A DNA stretch of 64,000 nt from an uncultured Bacilli bacterium. GTDB taxonomy: Bacteria > Bacillota_I > Bacilli_A > RF39 > UBA660. This document shows, piece after piece, positions 43,914-52,522 of this stretch (positions are counted from its first letter, which is position 1; each line of letters starts with the position of its first letter). Below the pieces are notes generated by a model. It searched no databases and had not been told where the DNA came from. It saw only the letters and a list, made by a program, of their open reading frames with translations. Location of the stretch: assembly GCA_944332715.1 (NCBI GenBank), contig CALVKN010000068.1:79755-143754 (forward strand), given 5' to 3'. The translations under genes and the position numbers were made by a program.

Positions 43914-43942
43914 TTGAAATGACGACACGTTTATGATATCAT
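43914..43942 (+). promoter_or_regulatory. Promoter of the hydrogenase operon (TTGAAA-17-TATCAT)
   Basis: TTGAAA at 43914-43919, a 17-nt spacer, TATCAT at 43937-43942. It sits in an AT-rich region about 150 nt upstream of hydC. Confidence 0.55.
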
Positions 43943-44087
43943 TTAGAAAAAGTTATATCGATATATATAGAAAGGTATGCCCTCCCGGTTCAGCGCTGGC
44001 TGCCTGTGAGGGTTGCATTTCGCCGGGAAGCCCGGACAAGAGCCGGGACTTTCGATCAGGGAGCAAATCGTTCTTAGGAGGTAACGT

Positions 44088-44585
44088 ATGGCAAAGCAGA
44101 AGACCGTGGTACCGTTCCAGGGCACGCCGGAGCAGGAGGCCAAGCTCAAGGAGATCATTGCGGAGTACCGGGAGGTGCGCGGCGCGCTGATGCCGGTGCT
44201 GCAGAAGGCGCAGGAGCTGTATGGCTACCTGCCGATCGAGGTACAGATCATGATCGCCGAGGGCCTGGGCCTGTCGCTGGAGGAAGTGTACGCGGTGGTC
44301 ACGTTCTATTCGCAGTTTGCACTCAATCCGACGGGCAAATACCGCGTGTCGGTGTGCCTGGGCACGGCGTGCTACGTCAAGGGCGCGCAGACGATCCTCG
44401 ACGAGCTGGAGAAGCAGCTGGGCATCAAGGCCGGCGGCACCACGCCGGACGGCCTGTTTACGCTGGAAGCCACGCGTTGCCTGGGGTGCTGCGGGCTTGC
44501 GCCGGTCATGACGGTGGGCGAGGAGGTCTACGGCCGCCTGGTGCCTGCGGATGTAAAGGATATTCTGGCCAAATACCGCGCCTAA
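44088..44585 (+). CDS. hydC: NuoE-like [2Fe-2S] subunit of the bifurcating [FeFe]-hydrogenase (HydC)
   Basis: 165 aa. NuoE/24-kDa family with cluster motifs CLGTACYVKG and CLGCCGLAP. RBS is taggagg. Confidence 0.9.
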   Translation: MAKQKTVVPFQGTPEQEAKLKEIIAEYREVRGALMPVLQKAQELYGYLPIEVQIMIAEGLGLSLEEVYAVVTFYSQFALNPTGKYRVSVCLGTACYVKGAQTILDELEKQLGIKAGGTTPDGLFTLEATRCLGCCGLAPVMTVGEEVYGRLVPADVKDILAKYRA

Positions 44586-44609: not shown

Positions 44610-44957
44610 ATGAAGATCCGGCAAATCGCGGCGCTGCTCGGCGCCGAGGTGCTTGCAGGGGAGGAACACCTGGCAGAGGAGGTGCTCTCCGCCTGTGGCA
44701 GCGACATGATGAGCGACGTGCTGGCCTATGTCAAGGATCAGGCGGTGTTGCTGACGGGCCTGGTGAACCCGCAGGTGATCCGCACGGCGATGATGATGGA
44801 CATGCGGTGCGTGGTGTTCGTGCGCAGCAAGCGCCCGAGCCCGGAAATGCTGGAGCTGGCGCGGGAGAGCGGCATCGCCGTATTGACCACCGCCATGCGC
44901 ATGTACGAGTCGTGCGGCAGGCTGTACAGCGGCGGCCTGGGCCGCGTGGAGGCCTGA
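44610..44957 (+). CDS. DRTGG-domain protein (copy 1)
   Basis: 115 aa. Its layout parallels the second copy at 46689 (L..a.vl.g......V.g.y..D.mSdVl....d.avLlT...N..vi.tA...d...vv...g..p....le.A...gi.vl.t....y), as I recall for DRTGG domains found in hydrogenase operons. Confidence 0.65.
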   Translation: MKIRQIAALLGAEVLAGEEHLAEEVLSACGSDMMSDVLAYVKDQAVLLTGLVNPQVIRTAMMMDMRCVVFVRSKRPSPEMLELARESGIAVLTTAMRMYESCGRLYSGGLGRVEA

Positions 44958-44960
44958 GCC

Positions 44961-45383
44961 GTGGGCGCGCTGCAACTCCACTTCGACGTGGACGGCGACA
45001 ACTTCACGTCCGCCGGCGAGGCGTCGGTCGAGGTCAAGCGCAAGCTGCGCCTGCTCGGCTTTTCGCCGGAGGTCATCCGCTGCGTGTCGATCGCGATGTA
45101 CGAGGGCGAGATCAACATGGTCATCCATGCTCGCGGCGGCGCGGCGGATGTGACGATCTACCGCGACCGGATCGAGATCGTGCTGACCGACCACGGCCCG
45201 GGCATTGCGGACATCGGCCTGGCGATGCAGGAGGGCTATTCCACCGCGCCGGACAACATCCGCACGCTGGGGTTTGGCGCGGGCATGGGCCTGCCCAACA
45301 TGAAGCGCTATACCGATGAAATGGAGATCACGTCCAAGGTCGGCGAGGGGACGACGGTGCGCATGACCGTGCTGGTCAAATGA
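44961..45383 (+). CDS. Small GHKL ATPase of the anti-sigma-factor Ser/Thr kinase type (RsbW/SpoIIAB-like)
   Basis: 140 aa with a GTG start 3 nt after the upstream stop. N-box-like region is AMYEGEINMVIHA, G1 is DHGPGI and G2 is GFGAGMGLPN. Confidence 0.7.
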   Translation: MGALQLHFDVDGDNFTSAGEASVEVKRKLRLLGFSPEVIRCVSIAMYEGEINMVIHARGGAADVTIYRDRIEIVLTDHGPGIADIGLAMQEGYSTAPDNIRTLGFGAGMGLPNMKRYTDEMEITSKVGEGTTVRMTVLVK

Positions 45384-45393
45384 GGAGCGGACG

Positions 45394-46692
45394 ATGGAAT
45401 ACAAACATTCGGTTTCGCTGGATTTAGAAAAGTGCAAGGGCTGTACCAACTGCCTCAAGCGCTGCCCCACGCAGGCGATCCGCATCCGCGACGGCCACGC
45501 CGTCATCGACGCGAGCATGTGCATCGACTGCGGGGAATGTATCCGCGTCTGCCCCTACAAGGCCAAGAAGGCGCTGTTCGACCGGCTGGAGGACATCCCC
45601 GCCGGCAAGAAGTGGCGCATCGCGCTGCCGGCGCCGTCGCTGTATGGCCAGTTCGACCATCTCGACGACGTGGACTATGTGCTGCAGGGCCTGCTCGACA
45701 TCGGCTTTGACGACGTGTTCGAGGTCGCGCGCGCGGCGGAGCTGGTGTCCGAATACACGCGCAACTACATGCGCCGCATGGACGTGCCGCGTCCGGTCAT
45801 CAACTCGGCCTGCCCGGCCATCGTGCGGCTGATCAGCCTGCGGTTCCCGTATCTTTGCGACCACGTGATGCCGCTGCTGCCGCCCATCGAGATCGCCAGC
45901 CGCATGGCCAAGGCCGAGGCGCGGCAAAAGCACCCGGAGCTGCGGGACGACGAGATTTGCACCGTGTTCATCTCGCCGTGCCCCGCCAAGGCGAGCTTTG
46001 TGAAGAACGGGTTCCAGACGGGGGGCGACGGCGTGGACTACGTCGTCTCCATGAGCGACATCTATTTCCGCCTGCTGCCGGCCATGAAGCGGAGCAAGGC
46101 GCCGGAGGCGGCGAGCCAGACCGGCATGATCGGCATCAGCTGGGCGAGCACCGGCGGCGAGGCGTCCGCGCTGCTCAACGACCGGTACCTGGCGGCGGAC
46201 GGCATTGAAAACGTGATCCGCGTGCTCGACCAGATCGAGACGGGCAGCTTCCCGATGCTGGAGTTCGTCGAGCTCAACGCGTGCAACGGCGGCTGCGTCG
46301 GCGGCGCGGCGACCGTGGAGAACCCGTACATCGCGCGCGTGCGGCTGCAGTCGCTGCGGCGGTACCTGCCGGTGTCGGAAAACCGGATCCCGCCGTGCGA
46401 CGACGCGACGTTCGTGCCGGACGACTATGTGACCAACACGTCCGTCAAATACCGCCCGGCCGCGCAGCTGGACGAGGACATGGAGCGGGCGCTCGAAAAG
46501 ATGTCGGCAATCGAGCAGATTTACGAGACGCTGCCGGCGCTCGACTGTGGGTTCTGCGGCGCGCCGTCGTGCCGCGCGTTTGCCGAGGACGTGGTGCGCG
46601 GGGCGTGCCACGTGGACGAGTGCATCGTGCGCATGCGCGAGCGGATGCAGGACTATCTGCGCAAGACGCGCGGGGAGGAGCCGGATTCATGA
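45394..46692 (+). CDS. Sensor-type [FeFe]-hydrogenase-like protein: 2x[4Fe-4S] ferredoxin domain, H-cluster domain and a C-terminal CxxCxxxxC Fe-S domain
   Basis: CKGCTNCLKRCP and CIDCGECIRVCP ferredoxin motifs. H-cluster motifs are degenerate: NSACP, SPCPAK, ELNACNGGCVGG. The C-terminus is LPALDCGFCGAPSCRAFAEDV...C...C. There is no HydA-type N-terminal 2Fe-2S domain. Confidence 0.8.
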   Translation: MEYKHSVSLDLEKCKGCTNCLKRCPTQAIRIRDGHAVIDASMCIDCGECIRVCPYKAKKALFDRLEDIPAGKKWRIALPAPSLYGQFDHLDDVDYVLQGLLDIGFDDVFEVARAAELVSEYTRNYMRRMDVPRPVINSACPAIVRLISLRFPYLCDHVMPLLPPIEIASRMAKAEARQKHPELRDDEICTVFISPCPAKASFVKNGFQTGGDGVDYVVSMSDIYFRLLPAMKRSKAPEAASQTGMIGISWASTGGEASALLNDRYLAADGIENVIRVLDQIETGSFPMLEFVELNACNGGCVGGAATVENPYIARVRLQSLRRYLPVSENRIPPCDDATFVPDDYVTNTSVKYRPAAQLDEDMERALEKMSAIEQIYETLPALDCGFCGAPSCRAFAEDVVRGACHVDECIVRMRERMQDYLRKTRGEEPDS

Positions 46693-47021
46693 CGGTTGGA
46701 GAGCTGGTAGAGGCGCTGCACCTCACGGCCTATGCGCTGCCGGAGCCGGAGCGGGCGGTCACGGGTGCCTATGCGGGCGACCTGCTGAGCTGGGTCATGC
46801 GCCGCGCGCAGGCGGACGGCGCGTGGCTCACGATCATGTCGAACCGCAACATTGTGGCCGTGGCCACGCTGACGGACGTGTCGGCCATCGTGCTGACCGA
46901 GGGCGTGCCGCCGGACGAGGGCGTGGCGGAGCTGGCCGAGGCGCGCGGCGTCAACCTGCTGGGCAGCGCGGCGGACACGCTGGAGACGGGCGCGGCGCTG
47001 CTGGAGCGGCTAAGCACATGA
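46689..47021 (+). CDS. DRTGG-domain protein (copy 2)
   Basis: 110 aa. Its ATG overlaps the upstream TGA (ATGA). Contains GDLLSWVMRRAQADGAWLTIMSNRNIVAVATL...AIVLTEG and has the same layout as copy 1. Confidence 0.65.
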   Translation: MTVGELVEALHLTAYALPEPERAVTGAYAGDLLSWVMRRAQADGAWLTIMSNRNIVAVATLTDVSAIVLTEGVPPDEGVAELAEARGVNLLGSAADTLETGAALLERLST

Positions 47022-47782
47022 GCGTGCTGCGCGCCCAGCTGCACCTGCACTCCTGCCTGTCGCCCTGCGCGGACGACGACATGACGCCCGCCAACATCGC
47101 CGGCATGGCGATGCTCGCCGGGCTGGACGTGGCGGCGCTGACCGACCACAACGCTACCGACAACTGCCCCGCGTTTTTTGCCGCGTGCGAGGCGTATGGC
47201 GTGGTGCCGGTGGGCGGGATGGAGCTGACCACGGCGGAGGAGATCCACCTGGTCTGCCTGTTTGAAAGTTTGGAAGCGGCCATGGCGTTTGGCGCGGCGG
47301 TGCGGCCGTACCGCGGGCGGGTGCCGAACCGGCCGGCGTACTTTGGCCGCCAGCTCGTGATGGACGCGGCGGACCGCGTCGCCGGGGAGGAGCCGTGCCT
47401 GCTGCTGCAGGCGACCGACCTGGCGCTCGAGGCGGCCGTGACGCTCGTGAGGGCGCATGGCGGCGTGGCATATCCGGCGCACCTGGACCGGGAGGCGGGC
47501 GGCCTGCTCGCGATCCTCGGGGCCATGCCCGAGACGCCGCGCTTTCAGGCGGCGGAGGTGCGCGACCCGGCAAACGCGGCGCTGTACCGCGCGCGGCCGG
47601 ATACGGCGGGGCTGCTGCTCGTGTCCGCCTCGGATGCGCACCGGCTCGGGGACGTGGAGGACGCGGCGTTCCCGTTTGACGCCGGCCCGATCGACGATAC
47701 GCGCACGCGGGCGCGCGCCCGGCAGGTGCGCGCGGCGCTCCTGGCGCTGCTGCGGCGCGGGGCGCCGGGGAGGGGCATTTGA
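47018..47782 (+). CDS. PHP-domain metal-dependent phosphoesterase
   Basis: LHLHSCLSPCADDD (HxH), LTDHN, and later AYPAHLDR and SDAHRLGDV motifs; 254 aa. The start overlaps the upstream stop (ATGA). Confidence 0.8.
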   Translation: MSVLRAQLHLHSCLSPCADDDMTPANIAGMAMLAGLDVAALTDHNATDNCPAFFAACEAYGVVPVGGMELTTAEEIHLVCLFESLEAAMAFGAAVRPYRGRVPNRPAYFGRQLVMDAADRVAGEEPCLLLQATDLALEAAVTLVRAHGGVAYPAHLDREAGGLLAILGAMPETPRFQAAEVRDPANAALYRARPDTAGLLLVSASDAHRLGDVEDAAFPFDAGPIDDTRTRARARQVRAALLALLRRGAPGRGI

Positions 47783-47783
47783 G

Positions 47784-48398
47784 ATGAAGGAACTCTCGCT
47801 CAACATTCTCGACATCGCCCAGAATTCCATCCGCGCCGGCGCGCGGCACGTGGAGATCGCGCTCACGGACGGCGGCGGATGGCGCACGCTGACCGTGACG
47901 GACGACGGCAGCGGAATGGACGAGGCGCTGCTCCGGCGGGTGACGGACCCGTTTGCGACCACGCGCACGACGCGGCCGGTGGGGCTGGGGCTGCCGCTGC
48001 TCAAGCTGGCGGCCGAGCAGACGGGCGGCGCGCTTTCCATCGACTCGCGCACGGCGCAGGCCGGGGACGCGGGGGCGGCGTTTGCGGCGGGCAGCGCGCA
48101 CGGCACGCGCGTGACGGCCACGTTTGACCCGGGGCACATCGACTGCGTGCCGCTGGGCGACCTGGCGGCGACCGTGGTCACGCTGCTGCAGGGCAGCCCG
48201 GAGCTCGACTTCCGCTTTACGCTCGCGCTTGCCGGCATGGCGGAGCCGTTCGTGCTGGACACGGCACAGATGCGCGCGGCGCTCGGCGGCGAGGTGCCGC
48301 TCAGCGAGCCGGAGGTGCTGGCCTGGGCGCGGGAGGGCGTCGAGGAGGCGCTCTCGGCGGTGCCGGCGCAGGAAGCGGCCTGGATGGAAACACCCTGA
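47784..48398 (+). CDS. GHKL-family ATPase (histidine-kinase-like ATP-binding domain only)
   Basis: N box is LDIAQNSIRAG, G1 is DDGSGM and G2 is GLGLPLLK. There is no DHp/His phosphoacceptor, TM or sensor domain. It starts 1 nt after the PHP stop codon. Confidence 0.78.
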   Translation: MKELSLNILDIAQNSIRAGARHVEIALTDGGGWRTLTVTDDGSGMDEALLRRVTDPFATTRTTRPVGLGLPLLKLAAEQTGGALSIDSRTAQAGDAGAAFAAGSAHGTRVTATFDPGHIDCVPLGDLAATVVTLLQGSPELDFRFTLALAGMAEPFVLDTAQMRAALGGEVPLSEPEVLAWAREGVEEALSAVPAQEAAWMETP

Positions 48399-48438
48399 CA
48401 GGTTTTCATAGATGACATTCAGAAAGGAAGAACAAGGC

Positions 48439-48813
48439 ATGAAATCGCTAGCTGAACTGCAGGCAATCCGGGACAAGATGAAGGGCAGAGTGGCCCTGCG
48501 CGAGGGTGTCCAGTCCATCCGCATCGTGGTGGGCATGGCCACGTGCGGCATTGCCGCCGGCGCGCGCCCCGTGCTGAACACGCTGGTCGAGGAGATCGAG
48601 CGCCAGGGCCTGGGCGACACCGCGACCGTGACGCAGACCGGTTGCATCGGGATCTGCCGGCTGGAGCCGATCGTCGAGGTGTACGAAAACGGCAAGGACG
48701 AGAAGGTCACCTATGTGAAGATGACGCCGGAGAAGGCCCGCCGCGTCGTGGAAGAGCACATCAAGGGCGGCAAACCCGTCTATGAATACACCATCGGCGA
48801 AGCCCAGAAGTGA
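48439..48813 (+). CDS. Thioredoxin-like [2Fe-2S] ferredoxin (HydD-type small subunit)
   Basis: 124 aa from MKSLAELQAIRDK. Cluster motifs are ATCGIAAG and GCIGICRLEP. Confidence 0.8.
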   Translation: MKSLAELQAIRDKMKGRVALREGVQSIRIVVGMATCGIAAGARPVLNTLVEEIERQGLGDTATVTQTGCIGICRLEPIVEVYENGKDEKVTYVKMTPEKARRVVEEHIKGGKPVYEYTIGEAQK

Positions 48814-48832: not shown

Positions 48833-50629
48833 ATGATTCGTTCACACGTACTGATCTGCGGCGGCACGGGCTGCACCTCGTCGGGCAGCCCCGCGATCCG
48901 CGCGCATCTGGAAAAGGAGCTGGCCGCGCACGGCCTGTCCGACGAGATCAAGGTCGTGCAGACGGGCTGTTTTGGCCTGTGCGCGCTCGGCCCGATCATG
49001 ATCGTCTATCCCGAGGGCACGTTCTACAGCCGCGTGACCGAGGCGGACGTGACGGAGATCGTCGAGGAGCACCTGCTCAAGGGGCGCGTCGTCGACCGCC
49101 TGGTCTACAACGAGCCGGCGCCCGGCAACGAGAAGCACGAGGTGGCGTCGCTGTCCGACACGGGCTTTTACAAGACGCAGCTGCGCGTCGCGCTGCGCAA
49201 CTGCGGCGTCATCAACCCGGAGGACATCGAGGAGTACATCGGCGTGGACGGGTACCAGGCGCTCGGCAAGGTGCTCACCGAAATGACGCCCGAGGAGGTC
49301 ATCGACCTCATGAAGCGCTCCGGCCTGCGCGGCCGCGGCGGCGCGGGCTTCCCGACCGGGCTCAAGTGGGAGTTTGCGGCCAAGAACGTCTGCGACGAGA
49401 AGTACGTCATCTGCAACGCCGACGAGGGTGACCCGGGCGCGTTCATGGACCGCTCGGTGCTCGAGGGCGACCCGCACGCGGTGCTCGAGGCCATGGCCAT
49501 CGCGGGCTATGCCATCGGCGCGCACCACGGCTACATCTACGTGCGCGCGGAGTACCCCATCGCGGTCAAGCGGCTGGAGATCGCCATCGGCCAGGCGCGG
49601 GACTACGGCCTGCTCGGGAAGAACATCTTCGACAGCGGGTTCGACTTTGACATCGACATCCGCCTGGGCGCGGGCGCGTTCGTGTGCGGCGAGGAGACGG
49701 CGCTGATCACCTCCATCGAGGGCAACCGCGGCGAGCCGAAGAACAAGCCGCCGTTCCCGGCGAACAAGGGCCTGTTCGGGCAGCCGACGATCATCAACAA
49801 CGTCGAGACGTTGGCCAACATCCCGCAGATCATCGTCAAGGGGCCGGAGTGGTTCGCGTCGATGGGCACCGAGACGTCCAAGGGCACCAAGGTGTTTGCG
49901 CTCGGCGGCAAGATCACGAACACCGGCCTCGTCGAGATCCCCATGGGCACCACGTTGCGCGAGATCATCTACGACATCGGCGGCGGCATCCCGGGCGGCA
50001 AGGCGTTCAAGGCGGCGCAGACGGGCGGCCCGTCCGGCGGCTGCATCCCGGCCAAGCACCTCGATACGCCGATCGACTACGAGAACCTGAAGGCCATCGG
50101 CTCGATGATGGGCTCCGGCGGGCTCATCGTCATGGACGAGGACAACTGCATGGTGGACGTGGCGCGCTTCTTCCTGGAGTTCACCGTGGACGAGAGCTGC
50201 GGCAAGTGCGTCCCGTGCCGCATCGGCACGCGGCGGCTGCTGGAGCTGCTCAACAAGATCACCGAGGGCAACGGCACGCTCGAGGACATCGACAAGATGG
50301 AGGAGCTGTGCCACTACATCCAGAAGAACGCGCTGTGCGCGCTCGGGCAGACGGCGCCGAACCCGGTGCTGTCCACGCTGAAGTATTTCCGCGAGGAGTA
50401 TGAGGCGCACGTGGTGGAGAAGCGCTGCCCGGCGGGCGTGTGCAAAAAGCTCCTGCACTATGAGATCGACCCGGAGAAGTGCCGCGGCTGTACCGCGTGC
50501 GCGCGCAAGTGCCCGGTGGGCGCGATCCAGGGCAAGGTGCGCGAGGTGCATACGATCGACAAGGCCAAGTGTATCAAGTGCGGCGCGTGCATGGAGACGT
50601 GCAAGTTTGGCGCCATTTCGAAACAGTAA
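48833..50629 (+). CDS. hydB: NuoF-like NADH-binding flavoprotein subunit of the bifurcating [FeFe]-hydrogenase (HydB)
   Basis: 598 aa. N-terminal thioredoxin-like 2Fe-2S domain (CGGTGCTSSG...CFGLCALGP), FMN/NADH motif GLRGRGGAGFPTGLKW, N3 cluster motif CGKCVPCRIG, and C-terminal CRGCTACARKCP and CIKCGACMETC. Confidence 0.95.
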   Translation: MIRSHVLICGGTGCTSSGSPAIRAHLEKELAAHGLSDEIKVVQTGCFGLCALGPIMIVYPEGTFYSRVTEADVTEIVEEHLLKGRVVDRLVYNEPAPGNEKHEVASLSDTGFYKTQLRVALRNCGVINPEDIEEYIGVDGYQALGKVLTEMTPEEVIDLMKRSGLRGRGGAGFPTGLKWEFAAKNVCDEKYVICNADEGDPGAFMDRSVLEGDPHAVLEAMAIAGYAIGAHHGYIYVRAEYPIAVKRLEIAIGQARDYGLLGKNIFDSGFDFDIDIRLGAGAFVCGEETALITSIEGNRGEPKNKPPFPANKGLFGQPTIINNVETLANIPQIIVKGPEWFASMGTETSKGTKVFALGGKITNTGLVEIPMGTTLREIIYDIGGGIPGGKAFKAAQTGGPSGGCIPAKHLDTPIDYENLKAIGSMMGSGGLIVMDEDNCMVDVARFFLEFTVDESCGKCVPCRIGTRRLLELLNKITEGNGTLEDIDKMEELCHYIQKNALCALGQTAPNPVLSTLKYFREEYEAHVVEKRCPAGVCKKLLHYEIDPEKCRGCTACARKCPVGAIQGKVREVHTIDKAKCIKCGACMETCKFGAISKQ

Positions 50630-50644
50630 CGGAGGGCTGCATCA

Positions 50645-52522
50645 ATGGAAACTGTGAAAGTCAAGATCAACGGCATCCAGGTCGAGGTGCCAGCGGATGC
50701 GACCATCCTGGAGGCCGCCCACAAGGCGGGCGTGCGGATCCCAACGCTCTGCTACCTCAAGAAGATCAACGCCATCGCCGCCTGCCGCATCTGCCTCGTG
50801 GAGGCGACCGGGGTGCGCGGCCTGGCCGCGGCCTGCGTGCAGCAGGTGGCGGACGGCATGGAGGTGCAGACCAACACCCCCGCGCTGCGCAAGGCGCGGA
50901 AGACCACGCTCGAGCTGATCCTCTCCAACCACCGCATGGACTGCCTGTCCTGCGTGCGCAGCGACGACTGCGAGCTGAGGCGACTGGCGCATGAATACGG
51001 CGTGGACCAGTACAAATACGGCCGCGGCGAGCAGACGGCGCAGGCCGAGGCGCCCGCGGCGAAGCCGGGCGCGCGCAAAATGCGCTGCCGCGTGTGCGGC
51101 GCCGTGTTCGACGAGGGGATGGTCGCCTGCCCGGTGTGCGGCGTGGGGCCGGAGAACTTTGAGCCGGTCGACGAGGCGCCGGCCGTGGACCTGTCGCCGC
51201 GCATCCTGCGGGACAACAGCAAGTGCATTCTGTGCCGCCGCTGCGTGGCCGTTTGCAAGTACAACCAGGGCGTGTCCGTGATCGGCGCGAACGAGCGCGG
51301 GTTCGACACGCGCATCTCCTGCGCGTTCGACATGCCGCTCAGCGACACTTCCTGCGTCAACTGCGGCCAGTGCGTCGCGGTGTGCCCGACCGGCGCGCTG
51401 ACCGAGCGGGACGACACCGACAAGGTCTGGAAGGCGCTGGCCGACCCGTCCAAGGTCGTGATCGTCGGCCCGGCGCCGAGCGTGCGCGCGCAGATCGGCG
51501 AGTGCTTCGGCTATCCGATCGGCACCAACGTGGAGGGCAAGCTCGTGGCGGCGCTGCGCCGGCTGGGCTTTGACCACGTGTTCGACGTGGACACCGCCGC
51601 GGACGTGACGATCATGGAGGAGGGCACCGAGCTGCTCGAGCGGCTGCAAAACGGCGGCGTGCTGCCGCTGATGACGTCCTGCTCGCCCGGCTGGATCAAG
51701 TTCTGCGAGCACTACTATCCCGACATGATCCCGAACCTGTCCAGCTGCAAGAGCCCGCAGCAGATGTTCGGCGCGCTCATCAAGACGTACTGGGCGGAGA
51801 AGAACGGCGTGGACCCGAAGGACATCGTCGTCGTGTCGGCCATGCCGTGCACCGCCAAGAAGTTCGAGATCACGCGCGACCATCAGGCGGCGGCCGGCGT
51901 GCCGGACGTGGACATCTCTCTGACGACGCGCGAGCTGGCGGGCATGATCAAGCGCGCAGGCATCCGCTTCAACGATCTCGAGGACGAAGCGTTTGAGCCG
52001 GCGTTCGGCATCGCCTCCGGCGCGGGCCACATCTTCGGCGCCACCGGCGGCGTCATGGAGGCGGCGCTGCGCACCGTGGCGGAGATCGTAACGGGCAAGC
52101 CGCTCGAGAGCGTGGACTTCCAGGCTGTGCGCGGCACGGAGGCCATCAAGGAGGCCGAGTATGACCTGGCGGGCACGAAGGTGCGCGTGGCGGTCACCTC
52201 CGGCCTGGCCAACGCGAGGAAGCTGCTTGACATGGTCAGGCGCGGCGAGAAGGACTATCACTTCATCGAGGTCATGGCGTGCCCCGGCGGGTGTGTCAAC
52301 GGCGGCGGCCAGCCGCACCAGAGCGGCGAGGTGATGAACTTCACCGACCTGCGCGCCGAGCGCGCCAAGGCGCTCTACAGCGAGGACGCGGGCATGGCGT
52401 TGCGCAAGAGCCACGAGAACCCGGTGGTCAAGGAGCTGTATGAGACGTATCTCGAAAAGCCCGGCAGCCACAAGGCGCACGAGATCCTGCACACGAGCTA
52501 CGTGCGGCGGAGCGTGTACTGA
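50645..52522 (+). CDS. hydA: [FeFe]-hydrogenase catalytic subunit HydA (bifurcating/trimeric type)
   Basis: 625 aa. It has an N-terminal 2Fe-2S domain, a His-ligated cluster motif HRMDCLSCVRSDDC, and ferredoxin motifs CILCRRCVAVC and CVNCGQCVAVCP. H-cluster motifs are TSCSPGW, MPCTAKKFE and EVMACPGGCVNGGGQP. Confidence 0.95.
   Translation: METVKVKINGIQVEVPADATILEAAHKAGVRIPTLCYLKKINAIAACRICLVEATGVRGLAAACVQQVADGMEVQTNTPALRKARKTTLELILSNHRMDCLSCVRSDDCELRRLAHEYGVDQYKYGRGEQTAQAEAPAAKPGARKMRCRVCGAVFDEGMVACPVCGVGPENFEPVDEAPAVDLSPRILRDNSKCILCRRCVAVCKYNQGVSVIGANERGFDTRISCAFDMPLSDTSCVNCGQCVAVCPTGALTERDDTDKVWKALADPSKVVIVGPAPSVRAQIGECFGYPIGTNVEGKLVAALRRLGFDHVFDVDTAADVTIMEEGTELLERLQNGGVLPLMTSCSPGWIKFCEHYYPDMIPNLSSCKSPQQMFGALIKTYWAEKNGVDPKDIVVVSAMPCTAKKFEITRDHQAAAGVPDVDISLTTRELAGMIKRAGIRFNDLEDEAFEPAFGIASGAGHIFGATGGVMEAALRTVAEIVTGKPLESVDFQAVRGTEAIKEAEYDLAGTKVRVAVTSGLANARKLLDMVRRGEKDYHFIEVMACPGGCVNGGGQPHQSGEVMNFTDLRAERAKALYSEDAGMALRKSHENPVVKELYETYLEKPGSHKAHEILHTSYVRRSVY

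Follow-up and report, generated by a model that had tools for sequence, protein, structure and literature searches.

The window analysed here is a stretch of 64,000 nucleotides (positions 79,755 to 143,754 of contig CALVKN010000068.1, assembly GCA_944332715.1), which carries on its plus strand, at positions 45394-46692, an uninterrupted open reading frame of 432 codons for a 432-residue protein related to [FeFe] hydrogenases, hereafter HydS. The gene, hydS, is the fourth in a plus-strand operon of ten genes whose junctions are tight or overlapping, and it shares this operon with the genes of a HydABC-type hydrogenase and with genes for GHKL ATPases, DRTGG proteins and a PHP phosphoesterase. 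By its sequence, hydS is an ordinary gene of the group D (M2e), HydS-type [FeFe] hydrogenases, a class that was published together with its signature in 2019-2020.

Domain architecture, H-cluster motifs and class of HydS

HydS consists of three parts. The N-terminal F-domain (45412-45564; residues 7-57, matched by Pfam Fer4, Fer4_10 and Fer4_7) contains two [4Fe-4S] motifs formed by C14, C17, C20, C24, C43, C46, C49 and C53, and is followed by the H-domain (45619-46308; residues 76-305), which matches Fe_hyd_lg_C (PF02906, E 6.9e-31) and aligns with the Desulfovibrio desulfuricans enzyme (DdH). The third part is a C-terminal [4Fe-4S] motif of the RnfB N-terminal type, C385-x2-C388-x4-C393-x16-C410 (46531-46626; PF04060 'Putative Fe-S cluster', residues 380-411, E 3.5e-11), with LPALDCGFCGAPSCRAFAED at residues 380-399, an additional, unconserved C405, and a chain end 22 residues past C410. 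The last 45 residues resemble the RsxB/RnfB N-terminus (NF003475, residues 368-412), and the RnfB model TIGR01944 gives 53.9 bits, under its cut-off of 68.7, as a domain-level match. Although HydS shares the LDCGxCGxxxC...C motif with RnfB and RsxB, it carries a single such domain on a soluble hydrogenase-type protein and has no rnf genes adjacent, and the likeness is one of domain only. A Pfam scan of HydS (E <= 0.01) found no PAS or further domain, while the same scan detected PAS in the group C references.

The three H-cluster motifs are present as variants: L1 reads VINSACPAIV (residues 135-144; 45796-45825), L2 reads FISPCPAKASF (residues 192-202; 45967-45999) and L3 reads ELNACNGGCVGGAA (residues 293-306; 46270-46311), as a prior sequence-only reading of this DNA had placed them. 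That reading had named a shifted motif assignment as a possible refutation, and the alignments to DdH show the register unshifted and the relay Cys replaced: HMMER pairs SACP with SCCP, ISPCPAK with IMPCIAK and ELNACNGGC with EYMACPGGC, and C178A relay mutants are among the best PDB matches of HydS. We transferred the residue numbers of the Clostridium pasteurianum enzyme CpI by aligning the HydA of the operon residue for residue with CpI 239-405 and with HydS, and also by way of TamHydS, the group D enzyme of Thermoanaerobacter mathranii. All four H-cluster ligands (C300, C355, C499 and C503 in CpI) are retained as C140, C196, C297 and C301, together with the pocket lysine K358 (K199). The relay residues C299, E279, E282 and S319 are replaced by A139, Y121, N124 and M159, respectively, leaving R286 (R128) as the sole group A relay residue kept. 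Both pocket methionines are likewise exchanged (M353 for S194, M497 for N295), the L2 glutamate E361 is F202, and the tail of L3 is GGAAT instead of GGGQP. The intact cysteine ligands, the alanine at the relay position, the lost L2 glutamate, the lost GGGQP and the extra RnfB-like motif had all been recognised in the sequence-only reading, and the alignments bear these observations out.

These replacements are highly conserved. Across the HydS of 72 species, all 16 cluster cysteines, A139 and K199 are unvarying, and position 194 is Ser in 71 and Thr in the remaining one. Mean column identity across species is 68-70%. The constancy of the pocket residues and of the 16 cysteines implies that the changes in L1-L3 did not arise by chance. 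HydS also scores far under the NCBIfam cut-offs for the established catalytic groups (92 vs 406 bits for the group A model TIGR02512; 158 vs 450 bits for the group B model TIGR04105).

By definition, group D (M2e) enzymes have an N-terminal two-cluster domain and an H-domain that is without C299 and the other proton-transfer residues of group A and has Ser or Thr in place of M353; they carry Cx2Cx4Cx16C at the C-terminus, lack PAS and share an operon with a group A hydrogenase (PMC8163306). Every one of these features of sequence, architecture and gene context is found in HydS. The Cx2Cx4Cx16C motif has been defined for both M2e and M2f (PMC8163306), and group C (M2f) enzymes such as the Thermotoga maritima HydS also share the two-cluster F-domain and an H-domain without the group A proton pathway. 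However, the group C references carry a C-terminal PAS domain and are only about 26% identical to HydS, and in those examined the genes that follow encode a SpoIIE/PP2C phosphatase and a hydrogenase of group B type. With the group A enzymes (CpI, DdHydAB and the HydA of the operon) HydS shares the H-domain fold, the four cysteine ligands and K358, whereas C299, E279, E282, S319, M353, M497 and GGGQP are all replaced.

The reference enzyme for group D is TamHydS (WP_013150113), a putative sensory [FeFe] hydrogenase (PMC6984386, PMC8163306, PMC10407848, PMC13104023). The supplement of PMC13104023 gives a codon-optimised coding sequence for it, from which we rebuilt the protein, mending by homology the frame errors due to optical character recognition; the rebuilt protein has 435 residues, and 19 of the 19 residues numbered in the papers fall at their stated positions. 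HydS is 45% identical to it and colinear over 420 residues (E 3e-131), compared with 22% identity to the operon's HydA. The two proteins have nearly the same length (432 and 435 residues) and the same three-part architecture, and both have Ala at C299, Ser at M353, the Cx2Cx4Cx16C motif, and the residues E/E/S(T)/D of an alternative proton pathway. The equivalents of TamHydS R30, R32, K58, D(378)-C and E392-D393 are conserved in HydS as well, and each gene lies upstream of those for a trimeric group A hydrogenase and beside one for a histidine-kinase-like ATPase. They differ at the M497 position (Leu in TamHydS, Asn here), at E282 (kept as Glu in TamHydS, Asn here), at R286 (Lys in TamHydS, Arg here), and at TamHydS K35, R42, S384 and D403, which are H, M, A and E in HydS. 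The hosts also differ, a thermophile on one side and high-GC (guanine-cytosine), mesophilic Clostridia of gut type on the other, and so do the neighbourhoods: the window adds a pair of DRTGG genes, one PHP gene and a further GHKL gene, while the Pfam scan of the ten genes of the operon revealed no counterpart of the AraC-type regulator that is reported next to TamHydS.

A maximum-likelihood tree united HydS and TamHydS in a clade (support 100/99) that has group C as its sister (99/99) and is separate from groups A and B, which supplies the alignment and phylogenetic placement that the sequence-only reading had proposed as a check. With 26 rows the tree is a small one, and we selected its references ourselves from other genomes: three proteins of group C for which PAS and an adjacent SpoIIE phosphatase were confirmed, four of group B and several of group A, with TamHydS standing for group D. 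The AlphaFold2 model of HydS, built on an alignment of 34 homologues, reached a predicted local distance difference test (pLDDT) score of 76.7 and a predicted template modelling score of 0.76, and was used in place of a discarded single-sequence model (pLDDT 36). Foldseek placed DdH, CbA5H and CpI on top for this model (probability 1.0, template modelling scores 0.53-0.58).

A divergent group-D-like protein was also encountered among the related genomes, encoded by a 418-codon open reading frame (locus L095, G023:C71:38500-41000) and 30% identical to HydS. Its relay residue is Gln (LSQCPS), its L2 is without the lysine (VSECLSNF) and its C-terminal motif reads CCACGSPSC; in the tree it forms a long branch at the base of group D.

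The operon and its conservation

The operon opens at 44088-44585 with the gene for a NuoE-like, thioredoxin-type [2Fe-2S] subunit (HydC; PF01257, E 9.5e-54), followed by that for a first DRTGG-domain protein of 115 residues (44610-44957; PF07085, E 6.8e-9). Directly before hydS, at 44961-45383 and ending 10 nucleotides upstream of it, lies the gene for a small GHKL ATPase of 140 residues (PF13581, PF02518) that is SpoIIAB/RsbW-like: its match to TIGR01925 spIIAB (E 1.3e-15) is under the cut-off, and its alignment with SpoIIAB in the PDB (E 3e-5) pairs the ATP-binding boxes N, DxGxG and GMG. On the other side, the gene for a second DRTGG-domain protein of 110 residues (46689-47021; PF07085, E 7.4e-8) overlaps the hydS stop by ATGA, and itself overlaps in the same way the gene for a PHP-domain phosphoesterase of 254 residues (47018-47782; PF02811, E 7.6e-8). 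Then come a second GHKL ATPase of 204 residues with a HATPase_c domain only (47784-48398; PF02518, E 4.3e-14), a small thioredoxin-like [2Fe-2S] ferredoxin (48412-48813; PF01257, E 1e-4; NF041612, E 3.1e-11), the NuoF-like FMN/NAD(H) subunit HydB (48833-50629; PF01512, E 2.7e-48; PF10589, E 5.3e-36) and the catalytic HydA (50645-52522; PF02906, E 4.1e-98; PF02256), all on the plus strand. Most of the six junctions between the first DRTGG gene and the ferredoxin gene are gaps of 1-3 nucleotides or ATGA overlaps, the overlaps being two in number. The Pfam assignments bear out the neighbourhood of kinase and phosphatase type noticed in the sequence-only reading, in the form of the two DRTGG proteins, the pair of GHKL ATPases and the PHP enzyme.

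HydA, of 625 residues, is of group A type and has GGGQP, MPCTAKKFE and, at 51674-51694 (residues 344-350), TSCSPGW in place of TSCCPGW. Its best PDB match is HydA1 of Acetobacterium woodii (7q4v/8a5e), with an identical TSCSPGW, and the same motif was present in all 50 HydA L1 motifs found among the related loci; as judged from these comparisons, it is a clade feature of HydABC-type enzymes and no error. Within the accessory region of HydA, a stretch at 51083-51163 (residues 147-173) gives a weak rubredoxin-like match (PF21349 RUBY_RBDX, E 2.1e-4) under the cut-off. Upstream of the operon, the promoter/leader region (43914-44087) contains the AT-rich palindromes ATGATATCAT and TATATCGATATA.

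This operon is a very common, conserved locus in Oscillospiraceae, Acutalibacteraceae, Christensenellaceae and their relatives. More than 8000 homologues of HydS were found at E < 1e-10 in the protein collection, and in a pattern scan with one genome per species 594 of the 600 matches listed encode a HydS relative, giving a total of at least 594. Synteny and per-gene counts were taken from the best 80 species-level loci, essentially all of which have the same ten genes in the same order as far as the contig reaches. The first GHKL gene was found in 79 of these loci, the second DRTGG gene in 78, the PHP gene in 75, and the first DRTGG gene and the second GHKL gene in 74 each. In seven loci (L006, L012, L022, L054, L065 and L076 among them) the NuoE gene stands after the PHP gene and not at the head of the operon, which implies that DRTGG-GHKL-HydS-DRTGG-PHP and (NuoE)-GHKL-Fdx-NuoF-HydA behave as two separable modules. 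Apparent HydS fusions among unusually long frames of related genomes were ruled out as stop-to-stop artefacts; one 461-residue frame ends in a DRTGG domain and has no second Pfam domain.

Origin of the contig and distribution of the maturases

The assembly is a chimeric bin, in which 73 contigs (1.29 Mb) have a GC content of 23-33% and two others, the contig of the window (183 kb) and a 55-kb contig (C69), have 66-68%, so that only 238 kb of the bin comes from the organism of the window. The 18 relatives assigned to the same genus match the low-GC part, and the HydS operon was found in none of them. No HydE, HydF or HydG was found in the bin. We rejected this bin-wide lack of maturases as evidence on the organism of the window because the bin is chimeric, and genome-wide absences from it therefore tell nothing about that organism.

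The low-GC lineage has a hydrogenase of its own. A canonical [FeFe] hydrogenase of about 410 residues (TSCCPSW, GGGQP) occurs in 16 of its 19 genomes, namely in 15 of the 18 relatives and, in the bin itself, on the AT-rich contig C59, where it has 408 residues (L002, 594-1820). The idea that C59 was a contaminant was rejected, as the GC profile shows the contig of the window to be the one foreign to the bin. HydG was found in none of the 19 low-GC genomes, and neither HydE nor HydF in the bin itself, which makes this another apparent case of a hydrogenase without maturases.

Among genomes with the syntenic operon, HydG exceeded the NCBIfam cut-off in 9 of 22 and 18 of 50, or 27 of 72 in all. 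The 22 genomes comprised nine with all three maturases, two with HydE and HydF only, ten with none, and one (G048) with only a HydG remnant containing a stop codon. Of 201 genomes sampled evenly from the order of the closest named relative, 103 had HydS, and 27 of these 103 had HydG. About 60-75% of operon-carrying genomes show no HydG, and among HydS-positive genomes with very long contigs, counted from the listed coordinates, about six have HydG and nine do not. Where the genes are present, most genomes have hydE, hydG and hydF together on a single contig, and on the HydS tree the HydG state changes 19 times, compared with 21.9 in shuffles. The shared contig and this scatter weaken the all-or-none occurrence of HydE, HydF and HydG as proof of real loss, and binning loss may explain part of the missing HydG.

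In one of the related genomes, a 566-codon open reading frame (locus L094, G021:C1:409500-412500) encodes a group A-type HydA paralogue that lacks the four H-cluster cysteines (TSSSPGW, MPNTASKYE, no CxxGC) and retains the N-terminal Fe-S domains; HydG is present in this genome.

Proton transfer, putative H2 sensing and rival explanations

The sequence-only reading had described the proton pathway of HydS as dismantled, which is correct for the group A route and does not hold for the protein as a whole. A proton pathway exclusive to group D, E252-E289-S249-D265, has been defined in TamHydS, where E252 and E289 variants lose activity (Cabotaje et al., PMC10407848). All four positions are kept in HydS, as E256, E293, T253 and D269, with T253, E256 and D269 at 46141-46206 and E293 at the start of L3; E256, E293 and D269 are unvarying in the 72 species, of which 68 have Ser or Thr at position 253. 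Since this alternative pathway is retained, HydS would not be cut off from protons and, by analogy with TamHydS, is probably a slow bidirectional catalyst. TamHydS combines a low turnover with a Km for H2 of about 0.1 mM (PMC8163306, PMC10407848), and its specific activity of about 0.1 umol H2 per mg per min is orders of magnitude under that of group A (PMC10407848). As a class, group D is marked biochemically by uptake of the [2Fe] subcluster, low turnover, a high affinity for H2 and tolerance of CO.

We consider it likely that HydS acts as a HydS-type group D hydrogenase that binds H2 tightly, turns over slowly, and signals through the linked GHKL, DRTGG and PHP partners to HydABC. By comparison with TamHydS, the protein on which the experiments were made, HydS would carry a pair of [4Fe-4S] clusters at the N-terminus and a further one on C385, C388, C393 and C410, with an H-cluster liganded by C140, C196, C297 and C301. 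The replacement of the relay Cys by Ala, of M353 by Ser and of M497 by Asn leads us to expect high-affinity H2 binding and slow turnover, with protons probably travelling via E256-E293-T253-D269 instead of the group A route. H2 induces a change of secondary structure in TamHydS. In HydS, the gene context would be consistent with a conformation altered by H2 binding and a signal handed to the SpoIIAB-like GHKL ATPase, the two DRTGG proteins and the PHP phosphoesterase, and these partners may in turn adjust how strongly the operon's HydABC-type hydrogenase is expressed, or how active it is. Searching the literature for DRTGG together with hydrogenase returned nothing relevant.

Several observations weigh against this reading. 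To our knowledge, a sensor role in vivo has been shown for no group D enzyme. The Pfam scan of the ten operon genes found no DNA-binding or other recognisable output domain in the cassette, and no Rex operator was found at the hyd promoter, the lone two-mismatch match elsewhere being at chance level. That the alternative proton pathway is conserved suggests selection for turnover. The closed 3.7-Mb chromosome of the closest named relative (L005/G031, 71% identity) encodes none of HydE, HydF and HydG, and HydG is absent from 13 of the 14 genomes of the order whose HydS is nearest to that of the window. TamHydS is a reversible catalyst, working in both directions near the thermodynamic potential (PMC8163306). 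Its C-terminal cluster is not reduced by H2 (PMC13104023), which renders a signalling role of the corresponding cluster in HydS doubtful. The earlier proposal of a slow, H2-binding sensor agrees with the putative role that the literature gives to group D, apart from the alternative proton pathway that HydS retains.

The reversibility of TamHydS would also fit a different role, in which HydS serves as a second, low-rate catalytic H2 module whose F-clusters exchange electrons with the NuoE, NuoF and ferredoxin of the operon; it might, for instance, assist HydABC in H2 uptake or as a safety valve. The position of hydS within the structural operon, between hydC and hydB/hydA, is consistent with such a partnership, as is the conservation in 72 species of the group D proton pathway and of the N-terminal relay clusters. 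However, the operon already includes a complete catalytic HydA, the activity of TamHydS is far below that of group A, and HydS is always flanked by GHKL, DRTGG and PHP genes, with which it moves as a module of its own; we therefore regard a second catalytic module as unlikely. The view that HydS is a decaying or non-functional hydrogenase paralogue could draw on its degenerate L1-L3 and on its PF02906 score (108 bits, compared with 328 bits for HydA), but the column identity, the constant cysteines and pocket residues and the strict synteny in 80 species effectively refute it, and its homologue TamHydS is a folded, cofactor-binding enzyme.

The distribution of the maturases raises the further alternative that HydS, and perhaps HydA, lacks the [2Fe] subcluster and acts as a redox sensor with [4Fe-4S] clusters only, or is matured by an undescribed route. 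The low share of HydG-positive genomes, in the syntenic set and in the order, would agree with this, as would the nearly all-or-none pattern of the maturases in the 22 genomes, the closed chromosome without any of the three, and the missing HydG around the nearest HydS sequences. Binning loss of the one contig that carries hydE, hydG and hydF in most carriers would nevertheless give the same all-or-none pattern; near-identical HydS pairs disagree in their HydG state, and these genomes come without completeness figures. Moreover, genomes with and without HydG show the same invariance of the H-cluster pocket. On balance, a HydS without [2Fe], or with one assembled by such a route, appears improbable, slightly more so than the second catalytic module. 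We give somewhat more credence, though still only tentatively, to the narrower possibility that the lineage of the window, like its nearest relatives, truly lacks HydE, HydF and HydG while strict purifying selection maintains HydS and the HydABC-type HydA, their H-cluster pocket intact. Most hydrogenase-bearing archaea and some protists have active [FeFe] hydrogenases without maturases, and an alternative route is suspected there (PMC11216029).

With sensing by HydS as the favoured reading, the signature itself is not new, being the defining description of group D (M2e), and the HydS of the window adds one natural sequence to a described class. Its second-sphere variations, N295 (M497), N124 (E282) and R128, could be used for comparing group D enzymes. 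If the absence of maturases from most carriers is real, it bears on H-cluster assembly in abundant gut bacteria: very common gut Clostridia would then either make the [2Fe] subcluster in a way not yet described or employ HydS and HydA in its absence. Hundreds of Clostridia from gut and rumen share the DRTGG-GHKL-HydS-DRTGG-PHP-GHKL cassette as a fixed unit, wired directly to their main H2-evolving enzyme.

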